From IMG/VR virus record IMGVR_UViG_3300045988_113151: 64,000 nt of DNA, one strand, 5' to 3'. This DNA is from a virus. Below are positions 26,579 to 56,398 of the stretch, in pieces; the first letter of the stretch is position 1; every line of letters begins with the position of its first letter. A model generated the notes under the pieces. It ran no database searches and had not been told where the DNA came from. It saw only the letters and a list, made by a program, of their open reading frames with translations. The position numbers were made by a program, and so were the translations under genes.

Positions 26579-26959
26579 ATGGAAGACAAAGTACTTAAGA
26601 CAGTAGTAGATAGTATTAAATACTCATTTAAAAAAGATATACTAGTAAAACCATTGCCAACTACGAAGGTTACTGTAGAATATACAGAACAAATACCTAC
26701 TGGTGAAAAGGACGAGGAAGGTTTCAATAAATATGAAACTAAGAGTCACACCAAAGAAGTAGATTCAGAATTTTCAAGAGGTATTGTTATATCTTTACCT
26801 ACTAGCAAGGCAATAAATGAAGCTAATGATATGGACATTAATCTTGGCGATACTATAGTTTATGTATCTAAATTTGCTAAGAATTTTGATCTATTCAAAG
26901 ACTCGCAACTGGTTAAACCATACGATGTAATTGCAGTTGAGTCTGCTGAAAAAAAGTAA
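26579..26959 (+). CDS. GroES/gp31-like co-chaperonin candidate
   Basis: ILVKPLP, then an inserted charged loop, then GIVISLP...INLGDTIVYVSKF...YDVIAV. This follows the GroES pattern. Confidence 0.4.
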   Translation: MEDKVLKTVVDSIKYSFKKDILVKPLPTTKVTVEYTEQIPTGEKDEEGFNKYETKSHTKEVDSEFSRGIVISLPTSKAINEANDMDINLGDTIVYVSKFAKNFDLFKDSQLVKPYDVIAVESAEKK

Positions 26960-27034
26960 TTATTTAAGAGTGCTCGTGCGAGCTTAGTCGTCGCATCTGC
27001 ACTATAAAAATTTTATTCATATATTTACATTCTA

Positions 27035-27066
27035 AATACCCAGGGTTAAAAGCTCTGGGTATTTTT
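27035..27066 (+). terminator. Rho-independent terminator
   Basis: Stem AATACCCAG/CTGGGTATT followed by a T-run. Confidence 0.6.
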
Positions 27067-27117
27067 ATATAGTATACTTACTTAATAAATGTTAAATATT
27101 ATAACCATTTACTTATA

Positions 27118-27321
27118 ATGCCGTTTTATAGGCATATGGTAACAATGATTATGATATTAATTATAACCGTAGTAAGTATTATCTTATGCATGCATTGTAA
27201 GAATATAGGCTATAACAAAGGATATTCAGACGGTTATGAAGAATGTAAAAAGAATTTTGAAAAGATAGAAAGATATAAAAGATCTATGAGTTCAAAATTC
27301 TTAGAAAAATTAAAACATTAA
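27118..27321 (+). CDS. small single-TM protein
   Basis: ORF track; hydrophobic MVTMIMILIITVVSIILCM. Confidence 0.45.
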   Translation: MPFYRHMVTMIMILIITVVSIILCMHCKNIGYNKGYSDGYEECKKNFEKIERYKRSMSSKFLEKLKH

Positions 27322-27325
27322 TGAT

Positions 27326-27733
27326 ATGAAACAGTATAAAGTTATTAAAGAATTTGGTTGTGCCAAAAAAGGAGATATTTTCTATGAAACATCTGAGGGA
27401 CATTTTGAAATGGATAACACATCTGAGTGCGTGGATATGTATAGCAATCGTAATATGTGTATCAGCCCCAATATTATTAACACACTATTGGATGCAAAAT
27501 TTGTTGAAGAATTTAACTCAGAAACGAAAGAAGAAGAATTCGCAAAAGATAAACTGACTAGTATAAGTAACTTTATCTATGAAGCTAAAGAACAGTATAA
27601 GAAAGACCATGATAGTTTAGTTGATGAATATAATGAAGGCAACTTACCTGCATGTGTAAAAGTAGAAGCTGATACTGTTTACTTTAATATGAATAAGATA
27701 CTAACTAAAATTGAGGAACTAATAAATGAATAA
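27326..27733 (+). CDS. hypothetical protein, 135 aa
   Basis: ORF track. Confidence 0.5.
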   Translation: MKQYKVIKEFGCAKKGDIFYETSEGHFEMDNTSECVDMYSNRNMCISPNIINTLLDAKFVEEFNSETKEEEFAKDKLTSISNFIYEAKEQYKKDHDSLVDEYNEGNLPACVKVEADTVYFNMNKILTKIEELINE

Positions 27734-28100
27734 ACTAGTTAAGGAATGTAAGAAGAAAGATCTATATTCTGAATTCTTGAGGTCCTTAAACGGTATTATT
27801 CAACTACCAGACAGGGAGTTACAGCTACTTACTACTTTAGTAGACTTATAGATAAATAAGCAAAAACTCCCTGGTACTAGTGAGAGTGTAATTAGTACAG
27901 AAAATAGAAAGTATATCACTCATACTTTAGGTATTACTCCTGATAATTTGAGTAGATATTTAAGTAAATTCAAAGAACAAGGACTCCTAGTAAGAGGAAA
28001 AATAGATAATGAGTGGTTAGTAAATAAAATACTTATACCTGAAATAATTAAAGATAGAGTACAAATAACTATTATACTTAAAGTAAACAATGAAGAATAA
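27726..28100 (+). CDS. winged-helix DNA-binding protein, requires TAG read-through
   Basis: Hand translation from ATG 27726 with an in-frame TAG at 27849-27851. HTH-like LGITPDNLSRYLSKFKEQGLLVRG. Ends at TAA 28098. Confidence 0.5.
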
Positions 28101-28434
28101 GAACGTACTATATAAACTATATTCAGATGGTTTAATCATAAAAGTAACATATCATAATTGGTTTAAGTCTATCATTGATCTTATAAGTAATAGACCTGAT
28201 TTTGACATTGATTGTTACGTTCCAATCAAACAATATAATAACTCAGAGCAATCAAAACTACACGAATTACTTAGAAGAAATACTAATTTAAACTTTGATG
28301 ATATTACTGTTTTAGTTAATAGTATAAGACCTAACTCTATTATACCAAACTCTAAATTAGATTGTAATCCAAACTATGTCAATACAACAAAGAAGGAAGA
28401 TATCGATCTACTCAGAATTAGCAAACAAATATAA
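28090..28434 (+). CDS. hypothetical protein, 114 aa
   Basis: ORF track. Confidence 0.45.
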   Translation: MKNKNVLYKLYSDGLIIKVTYHNWFKSIIDLISNRPDFDIDCYVPIKQYNNSEQSKLHELLRRNTNLNFDDITVLVNSIRPNSIIPNSKLDCNPNYVNTTKKEDIDLLRISKQI

Positions 28435-28624
28435 TCTGCCATATCCAGTAATCGAAGTAATATGTAACAGCCCGTTTAAATTTGCTAAGTAGATTATAGC
28501 TGACGATGCTGATAAAAAAGACATAATGTTTGCTTACTTATTTAAACTAAAACTAAAGAAATTATACAAATGCAAAGATACGCAGAAATTATAGAGCAAG
28601 GAAGAGGCAGAAGAGGAACAATAA
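28376..28624 (+). CDS. possible small protein spanning in-frame TAGs
   Basis: Frame-2 reading MSIQQRRKISIYSELANKYNLPYPVIEVICNSPFKFAK-TAG-IIADDADKKDIMFAYLFKLKLKK looks protein-like. It overlaps both neighbours, so its extent is uncertain. Confidence 0.3.
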
Positions 28625-28755
28625 CTTACAGATTAAAAATACTTGCTGAAGATGGGGATCATTTCTTACTTGAGGATGAAGAAGGACCAGTATGGTTTTT
28701 AAAAGAACAAGTAAATAATATAATAATTAAAGACGATGAAACTGATAGAAAGTAA
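28570..28755 (+). CDS. hypothetical small protein
   Basis: ORF track. Confidence 0.4.
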   Translation: MQRYAEIIEQGRGRRGTITYRLKILAEDGDHFLLEDEEGPVWFLKEQVNNIIIKDDETDRK

Positions 28756-30511
28756 AGTAGAGATGCTAATACAAGGTAGTGGTATAGAAGGGATTTATAA
28801 GCAAATAGAGTTAGCTGGTCGTACTTGTTATAAATCTGAGGATAAAATTACTCCTACTTCAGCTAAAGAGTTTACAGATAGAATGATTAAATCAAAACAC
28901 TGTTATACTGGAGAAACAGAAGTGCTAACTGAGAAAGGTTGGATTAAATTTAGAAATTATAACGGAGAAAAGGTCGCAGTAATAAACAAAAATTGCTCCT
29001 TTAAAGGATTTGAGTCTCCCAGCAGAATAGTAAATTATTCTTATAAAGGAAATTTCTATTATTACCCATCATTAGGTATTGAAGTAACAGATGGTCATAA
29101 TATGTTTGGAGTATTTAGAGAAAGTAAAAATAACTTCTATACTAATTCTTCCTATAATTTATTTAGTTGTAATACTCCATATAGAGATAATAACGGTAGA
29201 GAAAAAACATTAGGAGAAAGAATGTTTAAATCCCCAAGGCACTGTGTTAAACCCATATCTCTGAATCCTTATGGTGAATTAATTGGATTTTGGTTAGGAG
29301 ACGGCTGTTATTCTCCTGAAACTAAAAATAAATTAGTATTTCATCTAAAGAAAGAGAGAAAAATAGAATATCTTAGACGAATATGTAATGAATTAGGATA
29401 TATTTTTGAGAAAAAAAAATCTAATTATTACACAGTTACTAATAATAACATAGGAAGTTCTTTTAGTTCATTATTTTATAATAATGGGAAAAGATTATCC
29501 TTACAATATTTTCCTTCTATAGACATTGCATATTCTATTATAAACGGATTAATAAACTCAGATGGAAGTTTGGGAATTAACACCAAAACTATCACTTTTA
29601 CTAATACTAGTAAAAGTATAATAGACTGGTTATTAATGTATGCTCCTATATGCGGTTACTCTATCTCTGATAGAGGAATATCTCATAATACCTCCTTAAA
29701 CAATCCTGTATATAAAGTATTATTGTTAGATACTAATTATACTCTAAACAATGATTCTAGGAATAAAGATTCTAAGGTTATTATTACTAATAAAGTGGAA
29801 GAGGTGTATTGTGTAACAGTATCTACAGGTTTAATAATGGTTAGAGGAACTAATGGTGTTACTACTATCTGCGGGAATTGTGCTATGCTTGAACACGGTA
29901 CTATTTATCTTACTATTGCTAAGACAGTTACAAACATTGGAGATCCTATATTCTATGTTAGAAATAAATACTCTAAAGTAAATGAGGATGATCTATTTTA
30001 CTTCATAACTACTAATATGCGTGTACTAGTAGAGAATAATAGACTAGATGATTTACAATATCAAGTGGAACCTACAGAATTTCATGAGAAACGCATTACT
30101 GTTAAGTTTATATGTGATAGAGGAGTAAGTCATGAGTTTGTAAGACATCGTGTATTTAGTTTCGCTCAAGAAAGTACTCGTTATTGCAACTATAGTAAGG
30201 ATAAATTTAATAACGAGCTTACTTTTATCACACCTACTACAAAAGAAATAGGAGCAAAAGGACCGTATGAACCTAATGATACATTTACAGTAGCTTTAAT
30301 GCAAGCAGAAAAGAACTATTTTGTTCTTATTCAAGAAGGATGGAAACCTCAACAGGCAAGACAAGTGCTACCTAACGCTTTAAAGACAGAACTAGTAATG
30401 ACAGGATTTATAAGTGATTGGGAACACTTCTTTGAACTGAGATGTAGTAAAGCAGCCCATCCTGATGCACAGAAGTTAGCTAATGAATTAAAAGAACTAA
30501 TTTACAAGTAA
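28736..30511 (+). CDS. thyX: flavin-dependent thymidylate synthase ThyX, interrupted by an intein
   Basis: ThyX signature RHRVFSFAQESTRY. The extein junction reads ...MIKSKH / CAMLEHGT, matching the conserved H-x-S-x-x-EH region. Confidence 0.8.
   Translation: MKLIESKVEMLIQGSGIEGIYKQIELAGRTCYKSEDKITPTSAKEFTDRMIKSKHCYTGETEVLTEKGWIKFRNYNGEKVAVINKNCSFKGFESPSRIVNYSYKGNFYYYPSLGIEVTDGHNMFGVFRESKNNFYTNSSYNLFSCNTPYRDNNGREKTLGERMFKSPRHCVKPISLNPYGELIGFWLGDGCYSPETKNKLVFHLKKERKIEYLRRICNELGYIFEKKKSNYYTVTNNNIGSSFSSLFYNNGKRLSLQYFPSIDIAYSIINGLINSDGSLGINTKTITFTNTSKSIIDWLLMYAPICGYSISDRGISHNTSLNNPVYKVLLLDTNYTLNNDSRNKDSKVIITNKVEEVYCVTVSTGLIMVRGTNGVTTICGNCAMLEHGTIYLTIAKTVTNIGDPIFYVRNKYSKVNEDDLFYFITTNMRVLVENNRLDDLQYQVEPTEFHEKRITVKFICDRGVSHEFVRHRVFSFAQESTRYCNYSKDKFNNELTFITPTTKEIGAKGPYEPNDTFTVALMQAEKNYFVLIQEGWKPQQARQVLPNALKTELVMTGFISDWEHFFELRCSKAAHPDAQKLANELKELIYK
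28901..29878 (+). mobile_element. intein with LAGLIDADG homing endonuclease (326 aa)
   Basis: Starts CYTGETEVLTEKGW (Cys1, block A-like) and ends ...TTICGN followed by Cys+1. LAGLIDADG motifs GFWLGDGCY and INGLINSDGSLG. Confidence 0.75.
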
Positions 30512-30512
30512 T

Positions 30513-30650
30513 ATGCATATATTTATAGAAGAATGTCTAGCACCACTATATAGACTACAATCTCTTAGAGAGATACATTTTGATCCTGTATTAATGAACG
30601 ATATAATGCTATTTATAGCAATGCAAGATAATAGACTATTGAAAGTATGA
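30513..30650 (+). CDS. small ORF, 45 aa
   Basis: Hand translation MHIFIEECLAPLYRLQSLREIHFDPVLMNDIMLFIAMQDNRLLKV. It fills the gap between genes. Confidence 0.3.
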   Translation: MHIFIEECLAPLYRLQSLREIHFDPVLMNDIMLFIAMQDNRLLKV

Positions 30651-31099
30651 AAATAGATAAATATGAATGCAGCTTTCCTGGTAATTTATGGGTAGTAATA
30701 TTAGATTATAATGAACCATTGGGTAAGATAGTAAACAAGTTCAACTTCTATAAAATGGATGGTAAATTTAATCAATTTAATGAGGAAATAGAAACAGGTT
30801 TACTAGAAGACAGACGTAGAGCTATAGCTGGTTGTTATTCAGTAATGGAAAAAAGTAGCGGAGACCTAGGTATACTTTGTTTAGTATTTATAATAGATCT
30901 AATGGATGCTAATACTATTGCACATGAATCAGTGCATATAGCTGATTACTATTATGAAGTTGGCGGGATATACTCAGAGTCATTTTCAGATGGAAACGAA
31001 TCTTATGCTTACTTAGTAGGTTGGTCAGCAGGCAATATATCTAAAACAGTAATAGACTATGAAAGAAGAAGAGATAAGAAACAACGAGAGCACATCTAA
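30647..31099 (+). CDS. hypothetical protein with HExxH motif
   Basis: IAHESVHIADYYYE. No further support for peptidase activity. Confidence 0.4.
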   Translation: MKIDKYECSFPGNLWVVILDYNEPLGKIVNKFNFYKMDGKFNQFNEEIETGLLEDRRRAIAGCYSVMEKSSGDLGILCLVFIIDLMDANTIAHESVHIADYYYEVGGIYSESFSDGNESYAYLVGWSAGNISKTVIDYERRRDKKQREHI

Positions 31100-32024
31100 A
31101 AAGAATGATTTTAAAGATAATAAACTTAGATGGGACTTACTCCCGTTAGAAACTATTGAAAACTTAGTAAAAGTTTATTCATTCGGTAGCAAAAAATATT
31201 CAGATAATAGTTGGCAGAATCTTGACAATTTCTGGGAAAGATACAAAGCAGCATTACTTAGACATTTGACAGCGATAGAAAAAGGTGAATTCTATGACAA
31301 AGAAAGTGGATTACCGCATTCGTCGCATCTAATGTGGAATGCAGTAGCTCTGGACTATGGGTTTACTCACGGTAAAGGTAAAGTAGTATATAAGGATATC
31401 CCTGGTTATGAAGAGTTCTACTATGCAGATAGTAATGGGAACATCTATTCGAAAGACAGGTTTCATAACACCTCTCAAGGAGGATTCATTAAAAAGGGTA
31501 GAATGTTGAAACCTTTCAAAAACAATCGAGGGTATTTGAATGTATCATTATGTGGTAACAATGGACAAAAGACCGAAAAAGTGCACCGACTGATCGCAAA
31601 AACGTTTTTAGATAATCCAAACAACTATCAAGAAATTAACCACAAAAATGAAATAAAGGATGACAATCGTGTTATAAATTTGGAATGGTGCGACAGATTA
31701 TACAATATGAATTATGGTACAATAAGATCCAGATTAAGCGAACACGCTGATTCTAAGAATAGAGTAAAACCAATAGTAAGATTAAATAAGAATGGAGATG
31801 TTATCCGCAAATATGAGTCGATTACTTCTGTAAAAGAAGACGGATTTGACCCAAGTTATGTTTTGAAAGTTTGTAGAGGTACTAAACAAGAAGCATACGG
31901 GTTTGTTTGGAAATACGACGACTTAAATGACAACAGTCTGTTAGAAAAGTTAAACAAACGTATAGAAGAAAAGATAAATAATTGCAATAAGATATTAGAC
32001 GAGTTAGAAACAACTCAAAAATAA
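31059..32024 (+). CDS. fusion of a small dATP/dGTP-diphosphohydrolase-N-like helical domain with a NUMOD4/HNH homing endonuclease
   Basis: N-terminal LRWDLLPLETIENLVKVYSFGSKKYSDNSW...LLRHL...ESGLPHSSHLMWNAVAL. Then NUMOD4-like YKDIPGYEEFYYADSNGNIYS, HNH_3-like GYLNVSL...KVHRLIAKTF...INHKNEIKDDNRVINLEW, and a C-terminal DNA-binding tail GFVWKY. Confidence 0.6.
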   Translation: MKEEEIRNNESTSKKNDFKDNKLRWDLLPLETIENLVKVYSFGSKKYSDNSWQNLDNFWERYKAALLRHLTAIEKGEFYDKESGLPHSSHLMWNAVALDYGFTHGKGKVVYKDIPGYEEFYYADSNGNIYSKDRFHNTSQGGFIKKGRMLKPFKNNRGYLNVSLCGNNGQKTEKVHRLIAKTFLDNPNNYQEINHKNEIKDDNRVINLEWCDRLYNMNYGTIRSRLSEHADSKNRVKPIVRLNKNGDVIRKYESITSVKEDGFDPSYVLKVCRGTKQEAYGFVWKYDDLNDNSLLEKLNKRIEEKINNCNKILDELETTQK

Positions 32025-32036
32025 AGAAACTAGAAT

Positions 32037-32540
32037 ATGGAACGATTGAAATTTAAGAAATTAGATTACTCTGTAAAAAATGCAGAGGGAGTAGAAGAGA
32101 TTAAGAAGTCAGAGGGTGTATTACCAACTAGAGCTACAGCGGGAGATGCTGGTTTAGATTTATATTCTACTCGTATGACACAAGAAGTAGATAATAGTGG
32201 CAAATTAGTTTTAGTATATCATACTGATATCGCTGTAGAAATCCCAGAAGGTTATTGCGGCTTACTTATGATGAAGTCTTCTGTAAGTAATAGATCTATC
32301 TGTTTGACTAATGCCGTAGGGCTAATTGACTGCTTTTATAGAGGGGAGATAATGGCTAAGTTCAAAGTTACAACAGATGCAGTGCCTACTGTATACTCAG
32401 TTGGTGAAGCATTCGCTCAATTAGTAATAGTTCCGTGTTCAATCCTTGAACCAGTATTTGTAGAAGAATTAAGCGAAACCGAAAGAGGCACTAAAGGATT
32501 TGGAGAAGCCGATGTAATTATTCCGGAAGAGGTAAAATAA
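32037..32540 (+). CDS. dut: dUTPase
   Basis: AGDAGLDLYS motif 1/2, GLIDCFYRGEI motif 3, and C-terminal RGTKGFGE motif 5. Confidence 0.85.
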   Translation: MERLKFKKLDYSVKNAEGVEEIKKSEGVLPTRATAGDAGLDLYSTRMTQEVDNSGKLVLVYHTDIAVEIPEGYCGLLMMKSSVSNRSICLTNAVGLIDCFYRGEIMAKFKVTTDAVPTVYSVGEAFAQLVIVPCSILEPVFVEELSETERGTKGFGEADVIIPEEVK

Positions 32541-32541
32541 T

Positions 32542-33090
32542 ATGTTACATTTCTTTGATATAGTAGGAGGAGAAGTAGTAATACATGCAGACTTATGGGC
32601 ACTACCGCCATTTGAAAAACTATGGAATCTAGATAAAGATCCTACTAAAGCTCACGCTAATAAGGTAGTAAAATTTATTATACTATGTGATTACTGGAAT
32701 AGCCCATATGTAAAGAGTATTAGTAGCACTGAGCTTAGAGAAAAGAAGTTAAAAGAAAGGATATTTAAAGATGAAAATTACTCTCTTACTTTAGATGAAT
32801 AGATAAGCAGAGATGAGTATAAAGAGCTTATTAACACTAGAAACCTTAAGATGCTAACTTCTATTATGAACAAATTAGATACTATCAGTAATTACTACGA
32901 ATCCTCCTTAGAGGAAGAATTAGATGAAACCAAAATAGGTAAGTTGTTAGCAGGATTTGAGAAAGTAAAAGGTACAATGCAAACTATAGATTTTCTAGAA
33001 AAGTCTGTTAAAGCAGAAGAGCTCGATAATACTAAAGTTAAAGGTAATTCTCAGATTAATCCATACGAGTTGGTAAAAAAAGTACAGTAA
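32542..33090 (+). CDS. conserved phage protein upstream of TerL (small terminase candidate), one in-frame TAG
   Basis: Track ORFs 32542..32802 and 32851..33090 share a frame and are separated only by TAG at 32800-32802. Confidence 0.45.
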
Positions 33091-33140
33091 CCTGTAACAT
33101 AAAAAATAAAGTTACGTTTTACAGAAAAAATAAAGAAACT

Positions 33141-33359
33141 ATGAAAAAGAAGAAATTTTATACCAAGAAAGAAGAAGTTTATTTAGATTTGACAAATCCT
33201 AATCAGACAGTTGGTGAAGCTATTGCACAATCGAATGCTGAAAGAAATGCTATCAAAGAATCTGTTTATGAAATTATAGAAGAAAAGATGGCTGAAGAAC
33301 CAACAAAAAAATCTAAATGGTATACTAAGTTTTGGAATAAATTAAAGAACTTATTTTAA
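33141..33359 (+). CDS. hypothetical small protein
   Basis: ORF track. Confidence 0.4.
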   Translation: MKKKKFYTKKEEVYLDLTNPNQTVGEAIAQSNAERNAIKESVYEIIEEKMAEEPTKKSKWYTKFWNKLKNLF

Positions 33360-33402
33360 AATATATGTCTAACGGGGATAGACATTAAACATTCCCCGGC
33401 AC

Positions 33403-33474
33403 TCTCCTGTGATGTAAAGGTAACATATTGAGCTCTAACCTCAAAATTGTCCGTTCGAGTCGAGACCAGGAGGA
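33403..33474 (+). tRNA. amber suppressor tRNA, anticodon CUA
   Basis: Acceptor 33403-33409 pairs with 33467-33473 (7 bp, terminal U.G). U8, then D arm ATGT-AAAGGTA-ACAT. Anticodon arm TTGAG-CTCTAAC-CTCAA with CTA at 33435-33437. T arm GTCCG-TTCGAGT-CG(A)GAC with one bulged A. Confidence 0.75.
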
Positions 33475-33509
33475 CTAATAAAAAATAATTTAATGTTACT
33501 ATCACAAAT

Positions 33510-36500
33510 ATGATAGACTTCTAGAAAAAAATATTAAATAGCAATAAGTTTAGACAAGCCTGTATTCAATTTTAGAATACAGGCTCTTATTGTTCATATC
33601 CTTCAGGAACATCTGAATACTATCAATTCTGGGATGAAGAAATGAACAGATGTATTAATGGTTATACTACCGATGATGGTGATTACATCACAGGGTATAA
33701 CTATTTTTATATAAACTATTGCCCTATACAAAGAATAGTACATACAGTAAAGAAGTTGCCAGATGGTACTACTAAAGTAATAAAAACTAGATCATTATAG
33801 TTTCCAGACTTTTATGACTATGACTATTACTTTTTCTTAGCAATGACAGAAGCTGAAGAAAAAGGTAAACATATGTGTGTACTTAAATCACGTCGTAAAG
33901 GTTACTCTTATAAGAATGCAGCAATGGCATGTCGTAACTATTACTTAATACCTAACAGTAAGACTTATATATACGCTTCAAATAAACAATATCTAACAGA
34001 GGATGGTATACTTACTAAAGCATGGGATTACATGGACTTTATAGATAAAAATACTGCTTGGGGTAAGAAGAGATCTGTGAATACATCAATGCGTAAAAGA
34101 GCTGGTTTCTTTACTAAAGATGAATTTGGTAATGAAATAGAAATGGGTTACAAGTCTGAAATAATTGGGGTATCCCTAAAAGACAATCCAGATGCAACTC
34201 GTGGTAAAGCTGGTAAACTTATTATATTTGAGGAAGCTGGTTCTTTTCCAGAATTAGGAGCTGCATGGTAGATTGCTAGACCTTCTGTAGAACAAGATGG
34301 TATAGCATTCGGAACAATGGTAGCATTTGGATGTGTGTGTGCTGGTACTAAAGTATGGACAGCTAATGGTAAGTGTGTATCTATTGAGGAACTCAATCCT
34401 AAAGATGGTATAATGGGGTGGGATACATATTAGGCTTATCCTCAAAATATATCTAATGTAAATCCTCCAGCAAAAAAACCATGTTTAAGAATAACTACTA
34501 ATACTGGTAGAACACTAGAGTGTAGCACAGATCACCCGTTGTTATGGTCTACTCCAGGTAAAACAAAAAGAGTACCTGGAAAAAGGAAAGAAAATGAACG
34601 CATGAAATCATGGTTATGGCACAAAGCTGAACTATGTAAAGTGGGAGATCAGGTTGGAGTTATTGATGAAGTACCTTATTTTGGTGACAAGAAAATGTGG
34701 GAACCAAGATTAGTAGGATGGTTGATAGGAGATGGTAGTTATGGTAATAATAAGACACCAATACTTAGTAATTGCGATGAATATATAAACAATTATATAT
34801 TTGAGAACTTTAATGCTAAAGTAGAAAAATCCTATCTTACTAAAGATAATAAATTATACTGTGAAACTAGGATCAAGGGTATATGTAAGAATTTAAGAGA
34901 ACTAGGTATATATGGACAAACTAGAGGTAATAAAACATTACCTATTAACATAGATGATTATGATTTTGAAAGCTTATCAGAATTAATAGGAGGACTATAC
35001 GATACAGATGGCTATATTAGAGTAGACAAAGATGGGAGAGTGAGAGTAATACTTACTCAAGCTTATGATACTTTATTAAAACAGCTTCAGATATTGTTAA
35101 TTAAATTTGGTATAAGCAGTTCTATTCGTTATATAAAATATAAAAATGAAAGAGTTCATATATCAAACGGGAAAACTATTAGATCTAAGAATGGGGAGTA
35201 CAGATTAGAAATAAACGATATTACAAGTGTGTGTAAGTTTGCTGATAGAATTCCTCTAACAGTTCAATACAAGTAGTCAGCTTTAGATATGATATTACTA
35301 TTTTCTTAGAAACATATAAATAAGTATAATAAGTATTTATGTGGCGTTCACGCTGAAAGAATAGTAAGTATAGAAGACATAGGACTACAAACAATCTACA
35401 ATCTTACTGCAAAAGAACAAAATAATTACATAGCTAATGGTATAGTAACTCATAACACTGGCGGTGATCCAGGTAGTAGTTTTGAAGCTCTTAGAGACAT
35501 GTTCTATAATCCAGACGGATATAATTGTTTATCATTTGAAAATATATGGGATAGTGCAGTAAGTAATACTAAATGTGGGTTCTTTATACCTCAGTATACC
35601 AATCTAGATATACGTAATGAGGATGGCAAAAGAATATATATGGATGATGATGGTAACACTAATGTTAAGCTGTCTCTACAATATATACTCGATGAGCGTA
35701 AAATAGTAATACAAAATGCTACTAGTTCTGTTGCTGTTGATAGATATGTTGCTGAAAGATGTATTACTCCTTAGGAAGCTTGTTTGGAATTTAACGGTAA
35801 TATATTCCCTAAAAAAGAACTTCAAGAATAGCTTGGTTTAATACGTACAAATAAAGCACTGTAGAACCATAAACAAGTTGGAGATCTTATATTTGATCAG
35901 TCTGGGTAGTTGAAATGGATACCTAAGAAACTTGGTGATATTACTAAATATCCTTTAGGTAAGGATGATGACCCAAAAGGTGCAATAGTAATATGGGAAC
36001 ATCCAGTTAAAGATGCTCCTTCAGGATTATATATAATAGGAGTAGACCCTTATGATCATGATTAGTCTGGTACAAATTCTTTAGGATCATCTATAGTGTA
36101 TAAAAGATTTCAGAGCTTTGAATCTTATTATGATATTATAGTAGCTGAATATACTGGTAGACCTGCAACAGCGGAAGAGTATTATGAGAATTTACGCAAG
36201 CTAGCGATTTACTATAATGGTAGAATAATGTATGAAAATGAACGTAAAGGTTTGTTCCCTTATTTTACAGCAAAGCATTGTGATTACTTATTAGCAGATC
36301 AGCCTGATATAATAAACGATATAGTAGGTAATTCTAAAGTACAACGCAAAAAAGGCTGCCATATGAATAAGCAAATAAAACAATGGGGTGAAGGCATGAT
36401 TAAAGACTGGTTAAATGAGGAGTATGCACCAGGTAAGAAAAATCTTACTAGAATACTATCTGAACCATTATTAGAAGAACTAATAAGCTATAATGATACT

Positions 36501-36692
36501 GGAAATTTTGATAGAGTGATGGCTTTAATGCAGGTAATGATATACAAAGAGTAGTTATATAACGTTGTTGTAAAACAGAAAGAAAAAGAGAATAAAGCTA
36601 AGCTGTTATTTGATGGGCCAATCTTTGCGCAGAGTTGGTTCCAAGATGACAAACCAAATATCAGTAATGACGATAATGTATATACATTTTAA
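33510..36692 (+). CDS. terL: terminase large subunit, TAG-recoded and intein-containing
   Basis: One frame runs from ATG 33510 to TAA 36690, crossing TAGs at 33522, 33573, 33798, 34269, 35274, 35772, 36552 and others. Walker A-like VLKSRRKGYS, Walker B LIIFEEAG, nuclease IIGVDPYDHD. Confidence 0.85.
34332..35456 (+). mobile_element. intein with LAGLIDADG homing endonuclease (375 aa) inside TerL
   Basis: Starts CVCAGTKVWTANG and ends IVTHN followed by Thr+1 (TGGDPG). LAGLIDADG motifs GWLIGDGSYG and IGGLYDTDGYI. It contains in-frame TAGs of its own. Confidence 0.75.
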
Positions 36693-36694
36693 TT

Positions 36695-39184
36695 ATGAAG
36701 AATTTAAAATCAATGCCGATTTAGAAACTCTCTATGTTCAAAAAGAATAAGGAGTGGAGGCAAGCTTGTGTAGACTATATCATAGGTGCTAGTGATTCTG
36801 GCTAGGGTAATTTAAATAGAGATAGATCTGATGAAATGCAGACTTACTATGATTTGTACAATAGTATATATAATGAAAAGGATCTAAAGTATGTTACTAA
36901 TCCATTTAAACAAGATGATGGATTCCCTGCTACAGCTTAGGACTATAATATAATAAAGCCATACATAGATCAGTTACTAGGAGAAGAAACTAAAAGACCG
37001 TTTAACTTCTATATAGCTAGAACTAGTGATGATGCTGCTAGTGAACTTCAAGAGAAAATGAAACAAATGCTAATGGACTATATCTATGCTACTATTACTA
37101 GTAAACTAAGCCCAGAGCAAGCAGCTAGATATGAACAAGCATTAGCTACTGGAGAAATTATGACTCCTGAGTAGATACAAAAATATGTTAATAAAGATTA
37201 TAAGGATATAGCAGAAACCACAGCATATCATACGCTATAGTATCTTAAGCGTAAATTGAATTTGATACACGAATTCTATAAAGGGTGGAAAGATGCGTTA
37301 ATAGCTGGTGAAGAGATTTATTATGTTGGTATAGTAAACGGTTAGCCATATACAGAAAGAGTAAATCCTATGTACTTTAGGTATGAACAATCTTTAGACT
37401 TAGAATTTATTCATGAGGCTTCATGGTGTTGTAGGAAAATGATTATGTCGGCTACAGAACTATATGATAGATTTTATGATAAAATGTCAGAAAAACAGCT
37501 GAACGATTTACTAGATTTAATAGATGAAAAACCAGGTACTTCTCCTGAAATAAGGAAAACATCTATGGATTACACTCACTATAAAATGTCTAGCATAAAT
37601 GGTTTTACTGCCAACCCTTTTGATGCTAATCATATTACTGTATATCACTGTTGTTGGAAATCATTTAAAAAGATAGGTTTTGTAAGTATAACAGATCCAT
37701 AGACTGGAGAAATAGAAGAGATACAAGTAGATGAAACTTATAAACCTACTGGTAGAGAAAACTATGTAGAATGGAAATGGATAGTTGAAACTTGGGAGGG
37801 TTATAGAGCTAATGATGATGAATATATAGGTATTCAACCAATAGAATATCAACATATATCAGCAGACAATCCTAATTCATAGAAGTTACCATATACTGGT
37901 GTTGTATATAATAATACTAATAGCAGACCTAGATCTTTAGTAAGCATGATGAAACCTTTACAATATATGTATATTGTAGTATGGTACAGACTTGAATTAG
38001 CTATGTCTAGAGATAAAGGTAAAGTAGCTTTGATAGATGTTACTTAGATACCTAAAGGATTAGGTATAGATGTAAATAAATGGATGCATTACTTAGGAGC
38101 ATTAGGTGTAGCATTTATTAATCCTTATGAAGAAGGTTGGGATGTTCCAGGACGTGAAGGTGGTAGACCAGCTCAGTTTAATCAGTTTCAATCATGGGAT
38201 CTTAGCATGGCTAATGTGATAGACCAGTATGTAAACCTAATGGCTAAAATAGAAGATATGGTAGCTAAACTTACTGGTATTACTCCTTAGAGATAGGGGC
38301 AAATAGCTCCAAATGAGCTTGTGTCTAATGCTAGTACAGCAGTAAGTATGTCTTATCATATTACTGAACCTTGGTTCTGGACACATAATCAAGTAAAGAG
38401 AGAGGTTTTAACAATGCTATTAAATACAGCTAAGGTAGCTTGGAAAGACAATAAAATGTGCTTGAATTATATACTAGACGATGCTACCAGAGCTTTTCTT
38501 AAATTATCTGATAGATTCTTCTATGAAGATATGGATGTGTTTATTGACGATAGTACTAAGAATAGACAAGACTTAGATGCTCTTAGAAATCTTATGTAGC
38601 CTGCTATGCAAAATGGTGCTAGTTTACTTGATATAGCTGAAATAGTTACATTAGACAATGTAAATATGATTAAGAGTAGATTAGAGGAAATTGAGCAGAA
38701 ACGTATGGAACAAATGCAGCAACAACAACAAGCTGAGCAGCAAGCTCAACAAGAACTAGTTGAAAAACAAAATCAAATAAAAGAAGAGGAGTTGATGATT
38801 AAAGAAGCTGAAATGGATCTTGAAAAATATAAGATAGATCAAGATAATGCTACTAAAATTACAGTTGCTCAATTAAATGCTTATAGAGGGTCTGAGAATA
38901 TGGATCAAAATGAAAACGGCATACCAGATCCTATGGAAATAGCAGCTCAGGCTTTAGAAGAAAGAAAACAGGCATCAGAAGAAGCTTCTAAACAATTTGA
39001 GTTCAATAATAAGCGTAGAGAAGTAGAGATGAAGAAAGAGATTGAAGATAAAAAAATTCAACTTGAAAAGGATAAAATCCAAGCTTAGAAAGAATTACAA
39101 GCTCAAAAAGATAAAGCTGCAATGGAAAGAGAGAGATTAAAAGCTAAGACTGCAATTAGGAATAAAGTAACAGGAGAGCGTTAA
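36695..39184 (+). CDS. portal protein, TAG-recoded (829 codons)
   Basis: Immediately follows TerL. One frame joins track ORFs 37370, 38084, 38321 and 38606 across TAGs at 37700, 38288, 38597 and 39086. Ends at TAA 39182. Q/E-rich C-terminal coiled coil. Confidence 0.7.
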
Positions 39185-39185
39185 T

Positions 39186-39539
39186 ATGAAGATAATTCAG
39201 AACAAACTAATTCCTTTTAAAGGATATAAATATATTAACTTATTTGGGTTATTGTTTACTAGAGATAAATCTAAAATAACAGATATAGAGTATAATCATG
39301 AGAAGATTCATCTTAAGTAGATGCAAGAAATGTTGTGGTTGCCATTTTATATCTGGTATGGAGTTGAATACTTGGTTATAACAGTAGCTAGGTTATTTGA
39401 TAAATAGGGAGATAGGTATCATGATATATCTTTTGAAGAAGAAGCTTATAATAATGAAACTAATCTGAACTATTGTAGTGACAGAAAGCATTTTGCTTGG
39501 TTAAAATATATAGGTATTAAAAGTAATTAGGAGGAATAA
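39186..39539 (+). CDS. hypothetical protein with HEKIH motif, TAG-recoded
   Basis: Hand translation MKIIQNKLIPFKGYKYINLFG...NHEKIHLK-TAG-MQEML...; ends at TAA 39537. Confidence 0.45.
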
Positions 39540-39541
39540 TT

Positions 39542-39595
39542 ATGGCATGCGGAAGTAAGAAAGGCTCTAAAAAGGGCGGTAAAAAGAGTAAGTAA
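39542..39595 (+). CDS. possible 17-aa Lys-rich peptide
   Basis: MACGSKKGSKKGGKKSK, preceded by AGGAGG 8 nt upstream. Very short. Confidence 0.2.
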   Translation: MACGSKKGSKKGGKKSK

Positions 39596-39597
39596 TT

Positions 39598-39957
39598 ATG
39601 GAACGTGAAGCATTTAGATAGAGAATGCAACAGTATAAGTAGGCTAGGGAAAGCAATCCCTAGCTGAAGTACTGGGATTGGAAGAAGTATGCAGATGGTG
39701 GTACTATAGAAGAGGATCCTCCAACTACTAGCGAAAGACCTATTATAAATTTTGATCCTAAAGGAAATCCGTACGAAGCTAAATATGGTTATAATCCTGG
39801 AGCTGGATTTACTAGAGATCCGTTTAGTCTATATGATGCTCCTGTTATAGGTGACGCTTTAAGTATATATGATGCATCAGAGGCTTTAAAGAATAAAGAC
39901 TTGTTAGGTGCAAGTTTAGCAGCATTAGGAGTAGTGCCGTTTGTCCCTAGTAATTAA
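39598..39957 (+). CDS. hypothetical virion-module protein, TAG-recoded
   Basis: Hand translation with three in-frame TAGs in the first 22 codons; ends at TAA 39955. Confidence 0.45.
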
Positions 39958-40014
39958 AGAGCTAGAGCTATTGATAGTAGATATGGTACTAGTTATGAAG
40001 CTGTTTATAAAGGT

Positions 40015-40596
40015 ATGAATGAAAGGTATCAAGATCCTATGGAATATTTTATGTCTAGTTATGAACCAGTATTAGATGCTAATCTAAGTAGTAGTACTAA
40101 AGCTCAAGTAAGTAGTAATCCTAAGAATAGAGATATAAGATTCAGTAAAGGAGTTAATACTGGAGAATATAACATAGATACTGGATTAATTAGACACGAA
40201 ATAGGTCATAAAGTAGATATAGATGCTACTAGAGGAGCTGTCAATACTAATCCATTTATGTAGGATTTAGCTAAAGACATATTACCTTATGATCAAGCTA
40301 GATATATGTTACACGGAATAGAAAATCCTGTTGAATCATACAAGTACTTGACTACTCCTACAGAAATTAAAAGTCACATGAATCAATTTAGATAGTATCT
40401 GATTGATAATAAGATAATGAAACCTGGAGATAAAGTTGATGATGTTCCTAATTTCTTTATGCATTTATAGGCAGCTCCAGATGAATACAAAGGAATAAAA
40501 TTATTGCAAAATTTATTTAAGACTGATAGAGCCTTTAAGAAAAGGTTTGATTAGATACCGTTAACGAATATCAAAGATAACAGAGTAATAGCATGA
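40015..40596 (+). CDS. hypothetical protein with HEIGH zinc-peptidase-like motif, TAG-recoded
   Basis: LIRHEIGHKVD; the frame continues past TAG 40261 to TGA 40594. Confidence 0.5.
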
Positions 40597-40662
40597 TATT
40601 ATTAATGCTACATGCTGTAATAAAGGTAAAAAGAAGAAATAAATCTAATTAATATATTAATT

Positions 40663-41871
40663 ATGGAAAAAGAAAATAAGATTACTTTAGGTGGATTTGA
40701 CGCTATACTTGATAGCTTCATCCCTAATGTAAATAAAAATGTTGAAAATATCATTGCAGACGATTCTGTTGAAGAAGATGAATTAGATAATATTAAAAAG
40801 AATCAATTCGATCCTATTACAGATAATATAAAAAAACAAAAGGACAAGAAGGACGATAAGGCAGAAGATTCTAAAGACGATGTTGCTGATCCTGATGAAA
40901 CAGATGATAAGTTAGATATAAAATAGAAGTCTAACGATTCTAAAAAGAATAACAAAACTATAGATAAAGTAGATGAAAAAGATGAATTAGATGGTGACGT
41001 CGATGATGAATCTACTGAAGTAGATAGTAATGTAGTAAGTAACTTCTTTGACGCTATTGCTGAGAAATTAGGTTGGGATATTAATGAAGAGGATGAAGAT
41101 AGTAAACCTAAGGATGTAGACAGTCTTATTAAATATTTTCAAGATATTATAGAAGAAGAAAGCAAACCTACTTATGCTAGTGAGGAAGTAGAAGCACTTG
41201 ATAACTTCGTAAAACAAGGTGGAGATCTTAAACAATACTTACAGATAGATGCAGAGTTGGATCTAGATGATATTGATATGGAAGATGAGTCTAATCAAAA
41301 GTTAGTAGTAAAACAGTTCTTAAAAGAAAAAGGTATTAGTGCTAAACAAATAGAAAAGAAAATATCCAAGTATGAAGAAGCTGGTTTACTTGAAGATGAG
41401 GCTCAGGATGCATTAGAAAGTCTTAAGGAGATAAAGGAAGATAAAAAAGAACAGCTATTATTGGAACAGAAAAAACAATATGAGCGAATGGTTGCTAACC
41501 AACAGAAATTCTATAATAGCGTTGTCTCTGAAATAAAAGGCTTAAAAAATATACGTGGTATTACGGTCCCTGAAAAAGACAAAAAAGTATTAATAGATTA
41601 TATACTTAAGCCAGACACCGACGGTAAAACTAAGTACCAAAAGGACTATGCTAAAGGTGGTGTAAAGAACTTAATAGAATCAGCATACTTTACTATGAAT
41701 GCAGATAAACTATTAGAAGCTGCAAAAAAAGCTGGAAGTAACTCAGCTATTGATAAGTTTAAAAATAGTTTAAAAACAACATCTGTAAATACTCGATCTA
41801 AACAAATATCAAAGAGTAATGATGATGAGCCTATTTGGTCAAATATTGCACGAAAACTGCGTATATCATAA
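40663..41871 (+). CDS. acidic coiled-coil protein, scaffold candidate
   Basis: Track ORFs 40663 and 41257 share a frame joined across TAG 40924. Very D/E/K-rich. Located directly upstream of the MCP gene. Confidence 0.5.
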
Positions 41872-41909
41872 TAAATTAATAACAAATAAAATTAAATTAC
41901 TAGTATTTT

Positions 41910-43379
41910 ATGGATAACAATATTTTGAACTCGTTGGTCCTTTATAAAGGAAAATGGTTTAGCGATTTGATTGATACTAATAAAATCAGTCTCGCTTCTC
42001 AGCAAAGACCTTACGAGGTATCTACTATCCTGTCATACGTATTTGGTACTAAAGATAATGGTTACAGTACTTCTCTGGATATGTTGACAGGAGGTCTTGG
42101 TAACGTAATGACTATTGACAAACCGTCATTTGAATGGGGCGTAATGATTGATCAGGACAGAGCCGTTACAATTCGTGATGCAAAATGGAATGGAACTACT
42201 ATTTCTGAAGATTCTACTCCTGGTCTTGGTAATACCCCTATCACACTGTGGTTAGAAGATAGCTGGTTTGGACCTGGTGCTACAGTAGAACTTGATGACA
42301 AGAGTCAGTTGCGTTTCGCTGATGCTCCTTATCAGGATGGTAACTTATTCGTTTATACAGGTTTCATTGCTAATGGTAACCCTGCTTCTTACATTAATCC
42401 TCGTTATTTGCAAGCTGGTTGTCAAGTATCTCGTTTGGCATCTGCTTATGAAGAATACAGTGAAGAGGCTGATATCCTGAACTACAATACTCACTTCAAG
42501 ATGCGTAACTATTTGACTACAGTTCGTTTGTCTTATGATATTACAGGTTCTGCATACTCTGAAGTAATGGCCATTGCTTTGAGAGATCCTAAATCAGGTA
42601 AGACTTCTTACTTATGGTCAACTTTCCAGGAATGGGTAGCTATGCGTGAATGGTATAAGCGTCTCGAAAGAGCTTTGGTATATAATCAGAACAACGTAAA
42701 TAAGGATGGTTCTTGTAACTTGAAAGGTAAGAACGGTCGCCCTGTATTTATTGGTGCTGGTTTGTTGGAACAGATTGCTCCGTCTAACAGACGTTATTAC
42801 ACTCGTTTGACAGCAGAATTACTGGAAGACTTCTTGTCAGATTTGTCTTACAATGTACTTGGTACTAACGAACGTAAATTCATCGGTTTGACTGGTGAAA
42901 TGGGTCTTCGTGAATTTGACCGTGTACTGAAAGAAAAGATGGCTAACTTGAACATGATTGATACTGTATTTGTATCTGGTTCTGGTGAAAACTTGAAATT
43001 TGGTGGTCAGTTCAAAACTTATGCTATGAGCAACGGTATTGAACTTACTTTGAAGTACTTCCCGTTGTATGACGATTTGACTCACAACCGTCAGTTGCAT
43101 CCTGTAACATTGAAACCGCTGGAATCTTACCGTATTACTTTCTTGGATCTTGGTCGTCGTGACGGTGAAGCTAACGTAGTTAAAGTAGTTCGTAAAGATC
43201 GTGAATTCGTTAGCTGGTGTACTGCTGGTTCTGTAACTCCTGCTGGTTACGCTCACTCTAATACTGAAGTTCGTTCTAACGCTAAGGACGGTTATGCAGT
43301 ACATTTCTTGGGTGAATGCGGTATTATGTTGAAAGATCCTCGGGCGTGTGGGGAATTGATAATGGATTCACAAGATTGA
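41910..43379 (+). CDS. major capsid protein candidate
   Basis: 489-aa uninterrupted ORF after the scaffold-like gene. Marked shift to higher G+C and CGT/GGT/CTG-type codons, suggesting high expression. No TAG codon. Confidence 0.65.
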   Translation: MDNNILNSLVLYKGKWFSDLIDTNKISLASQQRPYEVSTILSYVFGTKDNGYSTSLDMLTGGLGNVMTIDKPSFEWGVMIDQDRAVTIRDAKWNGTTISEDSTPGLGNTPITLWLEDSWFGPGATVELDDKSQLRFADAPYQDGNLFVYTGFIANGNPASYINPRYLQAGCQVSRLASAYEEYSEEADILNYNTHFKMRNYLTTVRLSYDITGSAYSEVMAIALRDPKSGKTSYLWSTFQEWVAMREWYKRLERALVYNQNNVNKDGSCNLKGKNGRPVFIGAGLLEQIAPSNRRYYTRLTAELLEDFLSDLSYNVLGTNERKFIGLTGEMGLREFDRVLKEKMANLNMIDTVFVSGSGENLKFGGQFKTYAMSNGIELTLKYFPLYDDLTHNRQLHPVTLKPLESYRITFLDLGRRDGEANVVKVVRKDREFVSWCTAGSVTPAGYAHSNTEVRSNAKDGYAVHFLGECGIMLKDPRACGELIMDSQD

Positions 43380-43461
43380 TCAGCTATTATAATAAGTTAA
43401 ATTTGTAACCTAATTATGTTTCCTGCGTTATGAGAATATAAACTTAAAAAAATTATATTCT

Positions 43462-44124
43462 ATGAAAAGTAATGAAGTATACAAAATAACAAATAAAGTA
43501 ACTGGGAAAATATATATAGGCATAACAAATCAGGGCTCTGGTGCGAGATATAGACATCACTGGTATGAGTCTCGCATCGGAGAACCTTCTCCAATTCATA
43601 AGTCAATGGCTAAATATGGTGAAGAAAATTTCACTTTAGAAGTTATAGATTTCGCTGAAACTTATGAAGAGTTAAAAGAAAAAGAAAAACTTTGGATTAA
43701 AAAATTTAATTCTAACGATCGCAAAATTGGATACAATCTTACAGAAGGAGGAGATGGAACATTTGGAAGAATGCATTCTGATGAAACTAAAGAAAAAATC
43801 CGTCAAAAAGCTATTGGTAGGAAACTATCAGAAGAAACTAAAAAGAAAATGTCTGAAATACGAACTGGTAAATGCTCAGATAAACAAAAGGAACATTTAA
43901 AAAGAATATCAGTTCAGAATAGGGCGATTCCAGTATTACAGTTCTCTAAGACTGGAGAATTTATAGCTAAATACGAATCTATATCAGAAGCTGCGAGACA
44001 AACTGGAATAAACAGTGATACAATTGAGCGTCAATTGAAAAAACCTCTAAAGAATCCTAACGATTGGAGAATTAAATTTATATGGAAATCTGAAAGAACA
44101 GAAGATGCAGCAAATGCTGCTTAA
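43462..44124 (+). CDS. GIY-YIG homing endonuclease
   Basis: VYKITNKVTGKIYIGIT...YRHHWYES...GYN motif set, plus repeated NUMOD/IENR-like helices (ETKEKIRQKAIG, ETKKKMSEIRTG). Confidence 0.8.
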   Translation: MKSNEVYKITNKVTGKIYIGITNQGSGARYRHHWYESRIGEPSPIHKSMAKYGEENFTLEVIDFAETYEELKEKEKLWIKKFNSNDRKIGYNLTEGGDGTFGRMHSDETKEKIRQKAIGRKLSEETKKKMSEIRTGKCSDKQKEHLKRISVQNRAIPVLQFSKTGEFIAKYESISEAARQTGINSDTIERQLKKPLKNPNDWRIKFIWKSERTEDAANAA

Positions 44125-44148
44125 CTTGAATACTCTAATTATATAATT

Positions 44149-44901
44149 ATGGAAGTAATCGTTAAATTAACAAAAATAAATCCTTGGACGGGATTAATAA
44201 AATGGTCCAACTGTTTTGATTATGTAAGTACTTACTGGACTAGATCAGGTAGTAGATATACTGGTTTAACTACAGAGAAAGCCAGAGAGTTAGAATAGAA
44301 AATGGGTAAGGCAGAAGGTGAACTAGACCCAGGTAGTACATTTTGGGATACATTTGCAATCAAAATTGGTAAGAGAGAACTAGTTATTAATACAGATAGA
44401 CCAGAAGGAGAATTACAATATTTATTCTTATTGAAGCATAAGAGAGTAGCTAACGGATTAGATAAAGTAACTCCTGCTACTGATTATGTACTAATTAATA
44501 AAGAAGCTGAAGCCGAACAAGCTAATAAGATTAATAAGATTAAACGTGACGCTTATAGAGCATTGGATAAGATGAGTCTTGAAGATATGCGTAAATGTCT
44601 TAGACTGTTTGGTATTAAAGCTGATACAATGTCTAATGAATTAGTTGAAGCTAGACTTACTGAAAATATTGAAAGAGATCCAGCTAAATTTATTAGAATT
44701 TGGGTAGAAAACCCTAACAAAGAAATTAACTTCATTATTGAAGAAGCATTAAGTAAGAACATTATTCGTAAGAATAGATCTGCATATTACTTTGGTACAG
44801 ATCTAATAGGCAACGGTCTTGAAGACGTAATTGCATATTTGAAGGACAAAAAGAATCAAGACTTGTACTTGAGTATAATTGGAGAGATAAAATCTAAATA
44901 A
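44149..44901 (+). CDS. hypothetical head-module protein, TAG-recoded
   Basis: ATG 44149 is in frame with track ORF 44302 across TAG 44296. Confidence 0.5.
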
Positions 44902-44903
44902 TA

Positions 44904-45581: not shown

Positions 45582-45583
45582 TT

Positions 45584-46306: not shown

Positions 46307-46405
46307 ATAAATTAATGCGCTTGTTGACGTGGAAATCTGCAATAAGGAAAGTAGAAGACAAGCAGACTAGCGCTAAGTCTAATAATTAATTATTTTTATA
46401 GATAT

Positions 46406-47386: not shown

Positions 47387-47423
47387 TTTAACAACAAAAT
47401 AACGGTTTCTTTATTTAAAACCT

Positions 47424-47459
47424 GGCGAGGTTGAGGTTTATCCTCGGCTTCGCCTTTTT
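47424..47459 (+). terminator. Rho-independent terminator
   Basis: 13-bp stem GGCGAGGTTGAGG/CCTCGGCTTCGCC (three G.U pairs), loop TTTAT, then TTTTT. Confidence 0.75.
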
Positions 47460-47471
47460 AATTTTATAGAT

Positions 47472-51747: not shown

Positions 51748-51768
51748 CAAACTAAATAAGATATTAAT

Positions 51769-56391: not shown

Positions 56392-56398
56392 TAAATGT

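Follow-up and report, generated by a model that had tools for sequence, protein, structure and literature searches.

The DNA analysed here is a stretch of 64,000 nucleotides (nt) from IMG/VR virus record IMGVR_UViG_3300045988_113151, referred to below as the window, and the subject is a predicted amber-suppressor transfer RNA (tRNA) gene on its plus strand at 33403..33474. The gene, whose anticodon CUA occupies 33435-33437, stands directly before terL (33510..36692, plus strand), which encodes the large terminase, at the border of a late gene module rich in in-frame TAG codons. Judged from its sequence, the source of the window is a crAss-like gut phage of the Crassvirales, near the Suoliviridae; the 8 kb around the tRNA are 72-79% identical at the nucleotide level to the Suoliviridae phages cr4_1, cr6_1, cr113_1, and cr60_1.

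ARAGORN called the tRNA at 33403-33475 on the plus strand with anticodon CTA, among three RNA genes called in the window, and the Rfam tRNA model RF00005 matched 33403-33474 on the same strand over its full length (model positions 1-71) at 42.5 bits, above the gathering score of 29 (E = 1.2e-5 when all families and the full 64-kb window are counted). In the Rfam alignment, the acceptor stem comprises 7 base pairs (bp; TCTCCTG/CAGGAGG) with a terminal U1.G72 pair, U8 is present, and the 4-bp D stem (ATGT/ACAT) encloses a 7-nt loop, AAAGGTA, that contains GG. The 5-bp anticodon stem (TTGAG/CTCAA) carries the loop CTCTAAC at 33433-33439, with U33 and a purine at position 37. The variable loop is 4 nt long (AATT), the T loop is TTCGAGT, and the 3' strand of the T stem contains one bulged A at 33463; the discriminator is A73 and CCA is not encoded. 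A preliminary description of this DNA, made from the letters alone, had proposed a near-complete CUA cloverleaf marred only by the U.G pair and the bulged T-stem A, and every structural detail of that fold was matched by the Rfam alignment, just as the tRNA predictor it recommended as a check, run here in the form of ARAGORN, recovered the gene and its anticodon. Single-sequence thermodynamic folding did not return a cloverleaf (z = -0.5), a failure that is common for tRNAs, carries little weight, and is outweighed by the comparative evidence presented below. No second CUA tRNA was detected within the 64-kb window by ARAGORN or Rfam.

The label tRNA-Pyl, which ARAGORN prints for any tRNA with a CUA anticodon, was rejected. 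pylT has no GG in its D loop, no T-psi-C, an anticodon stem of 6 bp, and a variable loop of 3 nt. The window tRNA, in contrast, has the D-loop GG, TTCGA, an anticodon stem of 5 bp, and a variable loop of 4 nt, and unlike in pylT its acceptor and D stems are separated by two bases; the CUA anticodon is all that the two have in common.

An A-rich spacer (33475..33509, plus strand), in which a terminator scan found no terminator-like site, separates the tRNA from terL. The gap to the terL ATG, earlier given as 36 nt, is 35 nt from the discriminator (33474) and 34 nt from the end called by ARAGORN. terL has 1060 codons, including 13 in-frame TAGs, and its product matches phrog_6681 with E = 2e-149. 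The first TAG was said to be the fifth codon, and this was borne out: it lies at 33522-33524, the protein match begins at residue 1 in 80 related loci, and the N-terminus M-(I/V)-D-F-x-K-x-I-x-N-S-x-K-F-R is kept, so that conservation from the ATG at 33510 places this TAG truly within the coding sequence. A TAG at codon 5 is also present in 30 of 69 distinct terL sequences of relatives, and homology runs on across the TAGs. A later terL start, by which a hairpin at 33557-33585 would end the tRNA unit, was rejected because 45 N-terminal residues are conserved at the protein level from 33510. terL is interrupted at 34332-35456 (plus strand) by an intein of 375 residues (Pfam Intein_splicing and LAGLIDADG_3; boundaries, marked by a slash, G/CVCAG ... 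VTHN/TGG). In L009 and L010, the closest relatives, the intein is absent and the exteins show 97% identity to those of the window, so the intein insertion is recent or mobile.

When TAG was treated as a sense codon, coverage by open reading frames (ORFs) of the segment at 32-64 kb rose from 0.54-0.77 to 0.95-1.0, while that at 0-32 kb was barely altered. The TAG-recoded late module delimited by this ORF calling (33510..64000, plus strand) contains terL, the portal and major head protein genes, and tail and fibre genes. It has 97 in-frame TAGs in 9828 codons, compared with 4 in 1982 codons in the plus-strand block upstream. TAG makes up about one quarter of the glutamine-type codons (TAG, CAA, and CAG) of the module, whose genes, with TAG as sense, all stop at TAA or TGA; when the same module was translated with code 11, 18 of its 25 ORFs terminated at TAG. 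The portal gene (36695-39184, plus strand) contains 13 in-frame TAGs and the major head protein gene (41910-43379, plus strand; 489 codons) contains none. The gene that follows the latter (43462-44124, plus strand) is likewise free of TAG in the middle of the recoded module.

The co-oriented block of nucleotide-metabolism genes upstream of the tRNA (26579..33359, plus strand) is almost TAG-free. Located in it, all on the plus strand, are a thymidylate-synthase-like gene (28736-30511), an HNH/pyrophosphohydrolase gene (31059-32024), a dUTPase gene (32037-32540), the gene g32542-33090 (32542-33090), and a small ORF (33141-33359). Genuine in-frame TAGs occur at codon 87 of g32542-33090 and at codon 42 of g27726-28100, which also lies upstream of the tRNA. 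The tRNA, placed by the earlier statement at the head of the TAG-rich module, is thus not strictly in front of all TAG use: two genes 5' of the tRNA contain one TAG each, and the recoding boundary is sharp rather than absolute. Replication genes, encoding a primase, a DnaB-like helicase, a DNA polymerase, and a sigma-like factor, occupy the minus strand at 1-25 kb. On that strand 6 of 30 standard-code ORFs end at TAG (e.g., 9681-10250, 17075-17752, 17547-18035, and 23030-23407), and several of these ends are followed directly or a few codons on by more TAGs (TAG TAG; TAG xxx TAG) and then by TAA, so that TAG may be a stop in the early module and a sense codon in the late module.

Conservation was evaluated in 80 terL-related IMG/VR loci, which yielded 69 distinct terL sequences and, with RefSeq relatives included, 19 distinct tRNA alleles. 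In 71 of the 80 loci, local ARAGORN runs found a CUA tRNA that precedes terL on the same strand by 15-1765 nt; in three of the nine loci without one, the sequence upstream is shorter than 640 nt. Every one of the 80 terL genes contains between 7 and 17 in-frame TAGs, and none has a TGA or TAA in frame. The 19 alleles share one cloverleaf, with 96.0% of cells paired as compared with 68% in shuffles and 43-50% in slid registers. Double-sided changes were found in 18 of the 21 tRNA pairs, all four helices being kept by compensatory change, and the covariation score of 0.80 (0.26 in shuffles) was reached by none of 500 shuffles. U33, C34, U35, and A36 are invariant or nearly so, A73 is invariant, and the 1:72 pair of alleles with U1 is weak or mismatched (U.G in 11, U-A in 2, and a mismatch in 5). 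The T-stem bulge, located between positions 62 and 63, is common to 8 alleles with covarying neighbour pairs and is thus a family trait and not damage. An identical tRNA is present in L009 and L010, and the syntenic CUA tRNA is the sole tRNA gene called by ARAGORN in the complete genome of cr6_1 (97,422 bp). RefSeq labels the syntenic gene tRNA-Gln in cr4_1, cr6_1, cr113_1, and cr60_1, and the ARAGORN anticodon is CTA in each. The spacer between the tRNA and terL is 15-20 nt in many relatives or contains inserted genes, which in the RefSeq relatives is a homing endonuclease gene. These results confirm that the tRNA is real, structurally sound, conserved, and located directly before terL.

Additional variation was observed at the locus. 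In cr113_1 (L003, 4345-4435) and L085 the same site is occupied by a 91-nt CUA tRNA whose variable arm is long and which lacks the GG and TTCGA motifs. L071 has, between a leader element described below and its suppressor tRNA, a 103-nt tRNA-like gene (6585-6687; Rfam 35.2 bits) that ARAGORN detects only with an intron allowed. Phages with TerL proteins up to 99.7% identical have different tRNA alleles, and the allele of the window recurs in L019, L048, and L069, whose TerL proteins are only 81-83% identical to that of the window. This shuffling of alleles hints at selection on compatibility between tRNA and synthetase, or at escape from tRNA-targeting defences.

The amino acid encoded by TAG was addressed in a codon alignment of the 69 distinct terL sequences, in which the columns with TAG in some members were examined. 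The non-TAG codons in these columns were CAA in 490 cases and CAG in 230, giving a Gln total of 720, with Glu next at 391; Gln makes up 2.2% of the TerL protein as background. Fourteen columns are almost purely Gln or TAG, including those with window TAGs at columns 254, 380, 399, 477, and 640. CAA outnumbers CAG at the TAG columns, and the signal therefore does not stem from mutational proximity alone. An attempt to assign the amino acid through standard-code TerL homologues (Azobacteroides phage, PhiCrAssBcn23, Fpv20, and cr273_1) failed, the TAG positions being unconserved at that distance.

The tRNA itself was compared with host genes. The D-arm motif ATGGTGTA(A/G)TGGT..AGCAC, scanned over 185,579 species genomes, was found at at least 120 loci, mostly in Bacteroidales, and 115 of the 123 motif-bearing cellular tRNAs among the matches listed are tRNA-Gln. 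Like the phage tRNAs, the motif-bearing host tRNA-Gln genes begin with U1 in a weak 1:72 pair, which in the host is U1-A72, and have A73, a D loop of 7 nt, and a variable loop of 4 nt; most alleles of relatives carry the motif. The window tRNA has the U1 with a weak 1:72 pair, the A73, and the 4-nt variable loop of Bacteroidales tRNA-Gln; its D arm, GTGATGTAAAGGTAACAT, departs from the Gln motif by compensated changes at 10:25 and 13:22 and by a change in the loop. A hidden Markov model (HMM) of 49 host tRNA-Gln genes scored 28-48 bits against the TGCCCTA-type alleles of relatives, although the non-Gln comparison set was small and biased, and pairwise identity to host tRNAs did not discriminate isotypes. 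The comparison with Bacteroides tRNA-Gln that had been suggested beforehand thus gave a divided answer: most alleles of the family resemble tRNA-Gln, but that of the window matches neither the motif nor the HMM. It is too diverged to be classified by sequence, so its Gln identity rests on the codon evidence together with family links, in which L087 has the same T arm and L066 the same acceptor stem. From these two lines we strongly infer that the window tRNA reads TAG as glutamine.

The tRNA is preceded by a candidate H-type pseudoknot (33365..33398, plus strand) that was recognized by covariation of its helices and ends 4 nt before tRNA position 1. Helix 1 would pair 33365-33371 with 33379-33385 (ATGTCTA/TAGACAT), and helix 2 would pair the loop CGGGGA (33373-33378) with the downstream TCCCCG (33393-33398) past a linker containing UUAAA. 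The leader helices covary between clades (CGGGGA/TCCCCG, CAGGGA/TCCCTG, ACGTGG/CCACGT, and TGGGGTT/AACCCCA). In the in-register subset (n = 9) pairing is 100%, with 3 pairs changed on both sides, compared with 26-52% in slid registers. The leader had no match in Rfam at E <= 1. A Pistol ribozyme, suggested by the hairpin loop, the AAA linker, and the pseudoknot, was rejected since there are no equivalents of P2 and P3 and no Rfam match. The leader was the only G+C-rich match in a structural scan of the window, in which matches in total were no more numerous than in shuffles. No further copy was found in the window by sequence search or structural scan, which gave only chance-level A+T-rich matches, and a single copy argues against a repeated promoter or terminator signal. 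In some relatives the leader stands before an array of two or three tRNA genes.

Structure is also predicted within the start of terL. A TAG occurs in the first 16 terL codons of 67 of the 69 distinct sequences, compared with about 20% expected, an enrichment that holds only for terL; over all late genes of the window 5' enrichment of TAG was not significant (16 in 1100 codons vs 81 in 8728, p = 0.10). At terL codons 16-26, the terminator scan identified a hairpin (33557..33585, plus strand) of 11 bp followed by CTTATTGTT, which is terminator-like and lies within an outer pairing, AATAAG/CTTATT. A hairpin is present at this site in all clades of relatives with clade-specific stem sequences, and the minimum free energy (MFE) of 60-nt windows there averages -16 to -17 kcal/mol, compared with -8.2 overall. 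A second stem-loop (33650..33712, plus strand; ORF nt ∼141-203) was located by MFE windows. Its mean 60-nt MFE is -21 kcal/mol in 41 representative sequences, and in 22 of these it has the lowest energy of any window in the first 820 nt. No such MFE outliers were seen in two unrecoded or weakly recoded relatives, which were the only controls (n = 2).

Taken together, comparative sequence evidence makes it highly probable that the gene is a functional phage amber-suppressor tRNA that reads UAG, most likely as Gln, and serves read-through of the late module. The tRNA would be transcribed in the infected cell, freed from its transcript by RNase P and 3' processing enzymes of the host, and provided with CCA. 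Host glutaminyl-tRNA synthetase (GlnRS) would charge it, and the charged tRNA would compete with release factor 1 at UAG. Read-through of the 97 TAGs would allow the packaging, head, tail, and fibre proteins to be completed, and the replication and nucleotide-metabolism genes would be readable with the standard code of the host. Accumulation of the tRNA would then set the time at which late proteins can be finished. With both genes on the same strand, a 35-nt gap without a terminator, and gaps of 15-20 nt in relatives, the tRNA and the start of terL probably share one primary transcript, which would run into terL or end just inside it. It is equally conceivable that the tRNA closes the preceding TAG-poor operon, giving an early supply, or that it heads the late transcript, giving a coupled supply. 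That its site ties production of the decoder to the operon that needs it, as proposed in the preliminary description, is plausible and agrees with published models but is, like a role in timing, an inference.

Several observations weigh against this reading. The window TAGs at the variable columns 5, 22, 97, 410, and 425 are not Gln-dominated, and at column 7 of relatives TAG alternates with Lys. The window allele has A10-U25 in place of G10-C25 and carries C38, it was not matched in an nhmmer search with the tRNA-Gln HMM, and its assignment to Gln is indirect, by way of codon substitutions and the intermediates L087 and L066. The single TAG in each of the two upstream genes breaks a strict tRNA-first order. 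Finally, no release factor, aminoacyl-tRNA synthetase, or amidotransferase was found when 23 ORFs of the window were compared with PHROGs, a search that did not extend to small ORFs or to the genome outside the window; accessory code-change genes of this kind are optional in published cases.

Part of this evidence would also fit a functional UAG decoder charged with an amino acid other than Gln. Lys, Glu, Tyr, Ser, Leu, and Trp come into question since their anticodons are likewise one change from CUA. The identity elements of E. coli GlnRS include G10 and G2-C71/G3-C70, which the window allele lacks, and the host tRNA-Gln HMM misses it; some TAG columns alternate with Lys (7), Ser (410), or Thr (97 and 193), and the 91-nt CUA tRNA at the same locus of cr113_1 and L085 looks like a class II tRNA by its long variable arm. 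Such charging is nonetheless very improbable given that 14 conserved terL columns alternate TAG with CAA or CAG only, against the 2.2% background, and that CAA is the commoner of the two codons. The 4-nt variable loop, moreover, rules the window allele out as a bacterial-type Tyr, Leu, or Ser tRNA, the D arm of the family is the one typical of Bacteroidales tRNA-Gln (115 of 123 among the matches listed), and proteomics placed Gln at TAG in crAss-like phages (PMC9523058). Still further from the data, and extremely unlikely, is a tRNA-like relic or a processing or recombination signal, with UAG decoded by a host suppressor or by a phage tRNA encoded outside the window. The bulged T stem, the U.G at 1:72, and the moderate Rfam score of 42.5 bits could be taken in this sense; the window covers about two thirds of a roughly 100-kb genome, and in many recoded phages no suppressor has been detected (PMC7886860; bioRxiv 10.1101/2021.08.26.457843). 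A relic, however, would not be expected to show compensatory changes that keep all four helices across 19 alleles, nearly invariant U33, C34, U35, and A36, or a bulge shared by 8 alleles whose flanking pairs covary, and the gene is the sole tRNA of the complete cr6_1 genome and the only CUA tRNA in the window.

A different question is whether the position of a suppressor tRNA that does provide read-through has any regulatory meaning. The gene may be a mobile cassette, with late timing set by transcription alone, as might be suspected from the different alleles in phages with TerL up to 99.7% identical, the recurrence of the window allele in three phages at 81-83% TerL identity, the homing endonuclease gene that often lies in the spacer before terL, and the TAGs already present in two genes upstream. 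We regard this as possible but rather unlikely, as the locus is fixed despite allele exchange (in 71 of 80 loci the tRNA stands before terL on the same strand), the tRNA follows a conserved structured leader, and the excess of TAG in the first 16 terL codons fits selection for an early checkpoint. The early terL TAGs, which lie shortly ahead of the terminator-like hairpin or within it, and the terL hairpins suggest an attenuator-like link of suppression with late transcription. When suppressor is scarce, ribosomes would release at the early terL TAGs, the hairpin would form or Rho would gain access, and late-operon transcription would stop after the tRNA; when charged suppressor is plentiful, the TAGs would be translated, the hairpin melted, and transcription would go on. 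That the tRNA, the pseudoknotted leader, and the start of terL together form one such attenuator sensing the phage-made suppressor tRNA is a speculative and unlikely extension of the preferred reading, in which the gene is a Gln-inserting suppressor for the late module.

The reading as a late-module suppressor agrees with what has been described for related phages. Recoding of TAG to Gln in late genes with suppressor tRNAs was reported for the Delta/Suoliviridae group (Yutin et al., 2021, PMC7886860). Mass-spectrometric proof of Gln at TAG exists for two crAss-like phages (PMC9523058), one of which belongs to the Suoliviridae according to a review that also describes a terL intein and a single late transcription unit (PMC10136315). 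In the model of Borges et al., a suppressor tRNA acts as the gate for late and lysis genes (bioRxiv 10.1101/2021.08.26.457843). The tRNA(CUA) genes of the Suoliviridae phages cr6_1 (KNV52_gt01), cr4_1 (KNV51_gt03), and cr60_1 (KNV49_gt02) agree with that of the window in anticodon, strand, and recoded late module, in their site between the small gene after the dUTPase block and terL, and in the structured leader and covarying cloverleaf family. Compared with them the window allele is diverged (column identity over the family averages 59%): its T stem is bulged, its D stem has two compensated substitutions, it encodes no CCA, and it adjoins terL without an intervening homing endonuclease. The arrangement is that of Delta-group crAss-like phages (PMC7886860) and so belongs to a known class and is not a new kind; a suppressor tRNA before recoded late genes is already documented, and is annotated in relatives, and no new principle is involved.

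More distant parallels differ in instructive ways. The 'code change module' of Jade phages combines a suppressor tRNA with a tRNA synthetase as well as a release factor and lies upstream of the lysis cassette (bioRxiv 10.1101/2021.08.26.457843). As in that module, the suppressor of the window lies in a region compatible with the standard code and directly upstream of alternative-code genes. The Jade module, however, recodes TGA to Trp, whereas in the window the codon is TAG, the tRNA alone was found, and terL rather than a lysis cassette lies downstream. E. coli supE (glnV44), a tRNA-Gln with a CUA anticodon, reads UAG as Gln and needs tolerance of A36 by GlnRS; it is a point mutant of a cellular tRNA and gives partial suppression against an intact release factor. 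Unlike supE, the window tRNA would be a dedicated, phage-encoded decoder for the recoding of a whole gene module, and it lacks G10, G2-C71/G3-C70, and G73 from the E. coli identity set.

Elsewhere in the window, a second tRNA gene, a tRNA-Arg with anticodon UCU (8530-8604, minus strand; Rfam 69.3 bits), lies in the replication module, a short way upstream of the gene for DNA polymerase. The minus strand also contains a non-coding RNA island of low coding density at 18835-24417. A permuted tmRNA-like gene (18859-19239, minus strand) was called there by ARAGORN with the tag peptide VRNDKSFVTDYTRIAA and matches the Rfam family tmRNA_permuted with 48.5 bits against a threshold of 47. The island further contains, all on the minus strand, a RAGATH-9 element (20394-20547), two Hatchet ribozymes (21654-21792 and 23695-23807), and a RAGATH-14 element (24181-24417).

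For annotation, the consequence is that translation of the window has to render TAG as Gln, starting at 33510. The phage would carry its own stop-reading tRNA at the border between genes that the host can read and genes that it cannot. The suppressor is near-universal in this clade, present in 71 of 80 loci, whereas a share of about 40% has been reported for TAG-recoded genomes at large, and features such as the T-stem bulge or the long variable arm of some alleles could account for suppressors that predictors have missed in other phages. The leader and the structures in the first 200 nt of terL are candidates for the wiring of a late-expression switch. If the attenuator were to prove true, transcription of the late operon as well as its translation would hinge on the code switch.

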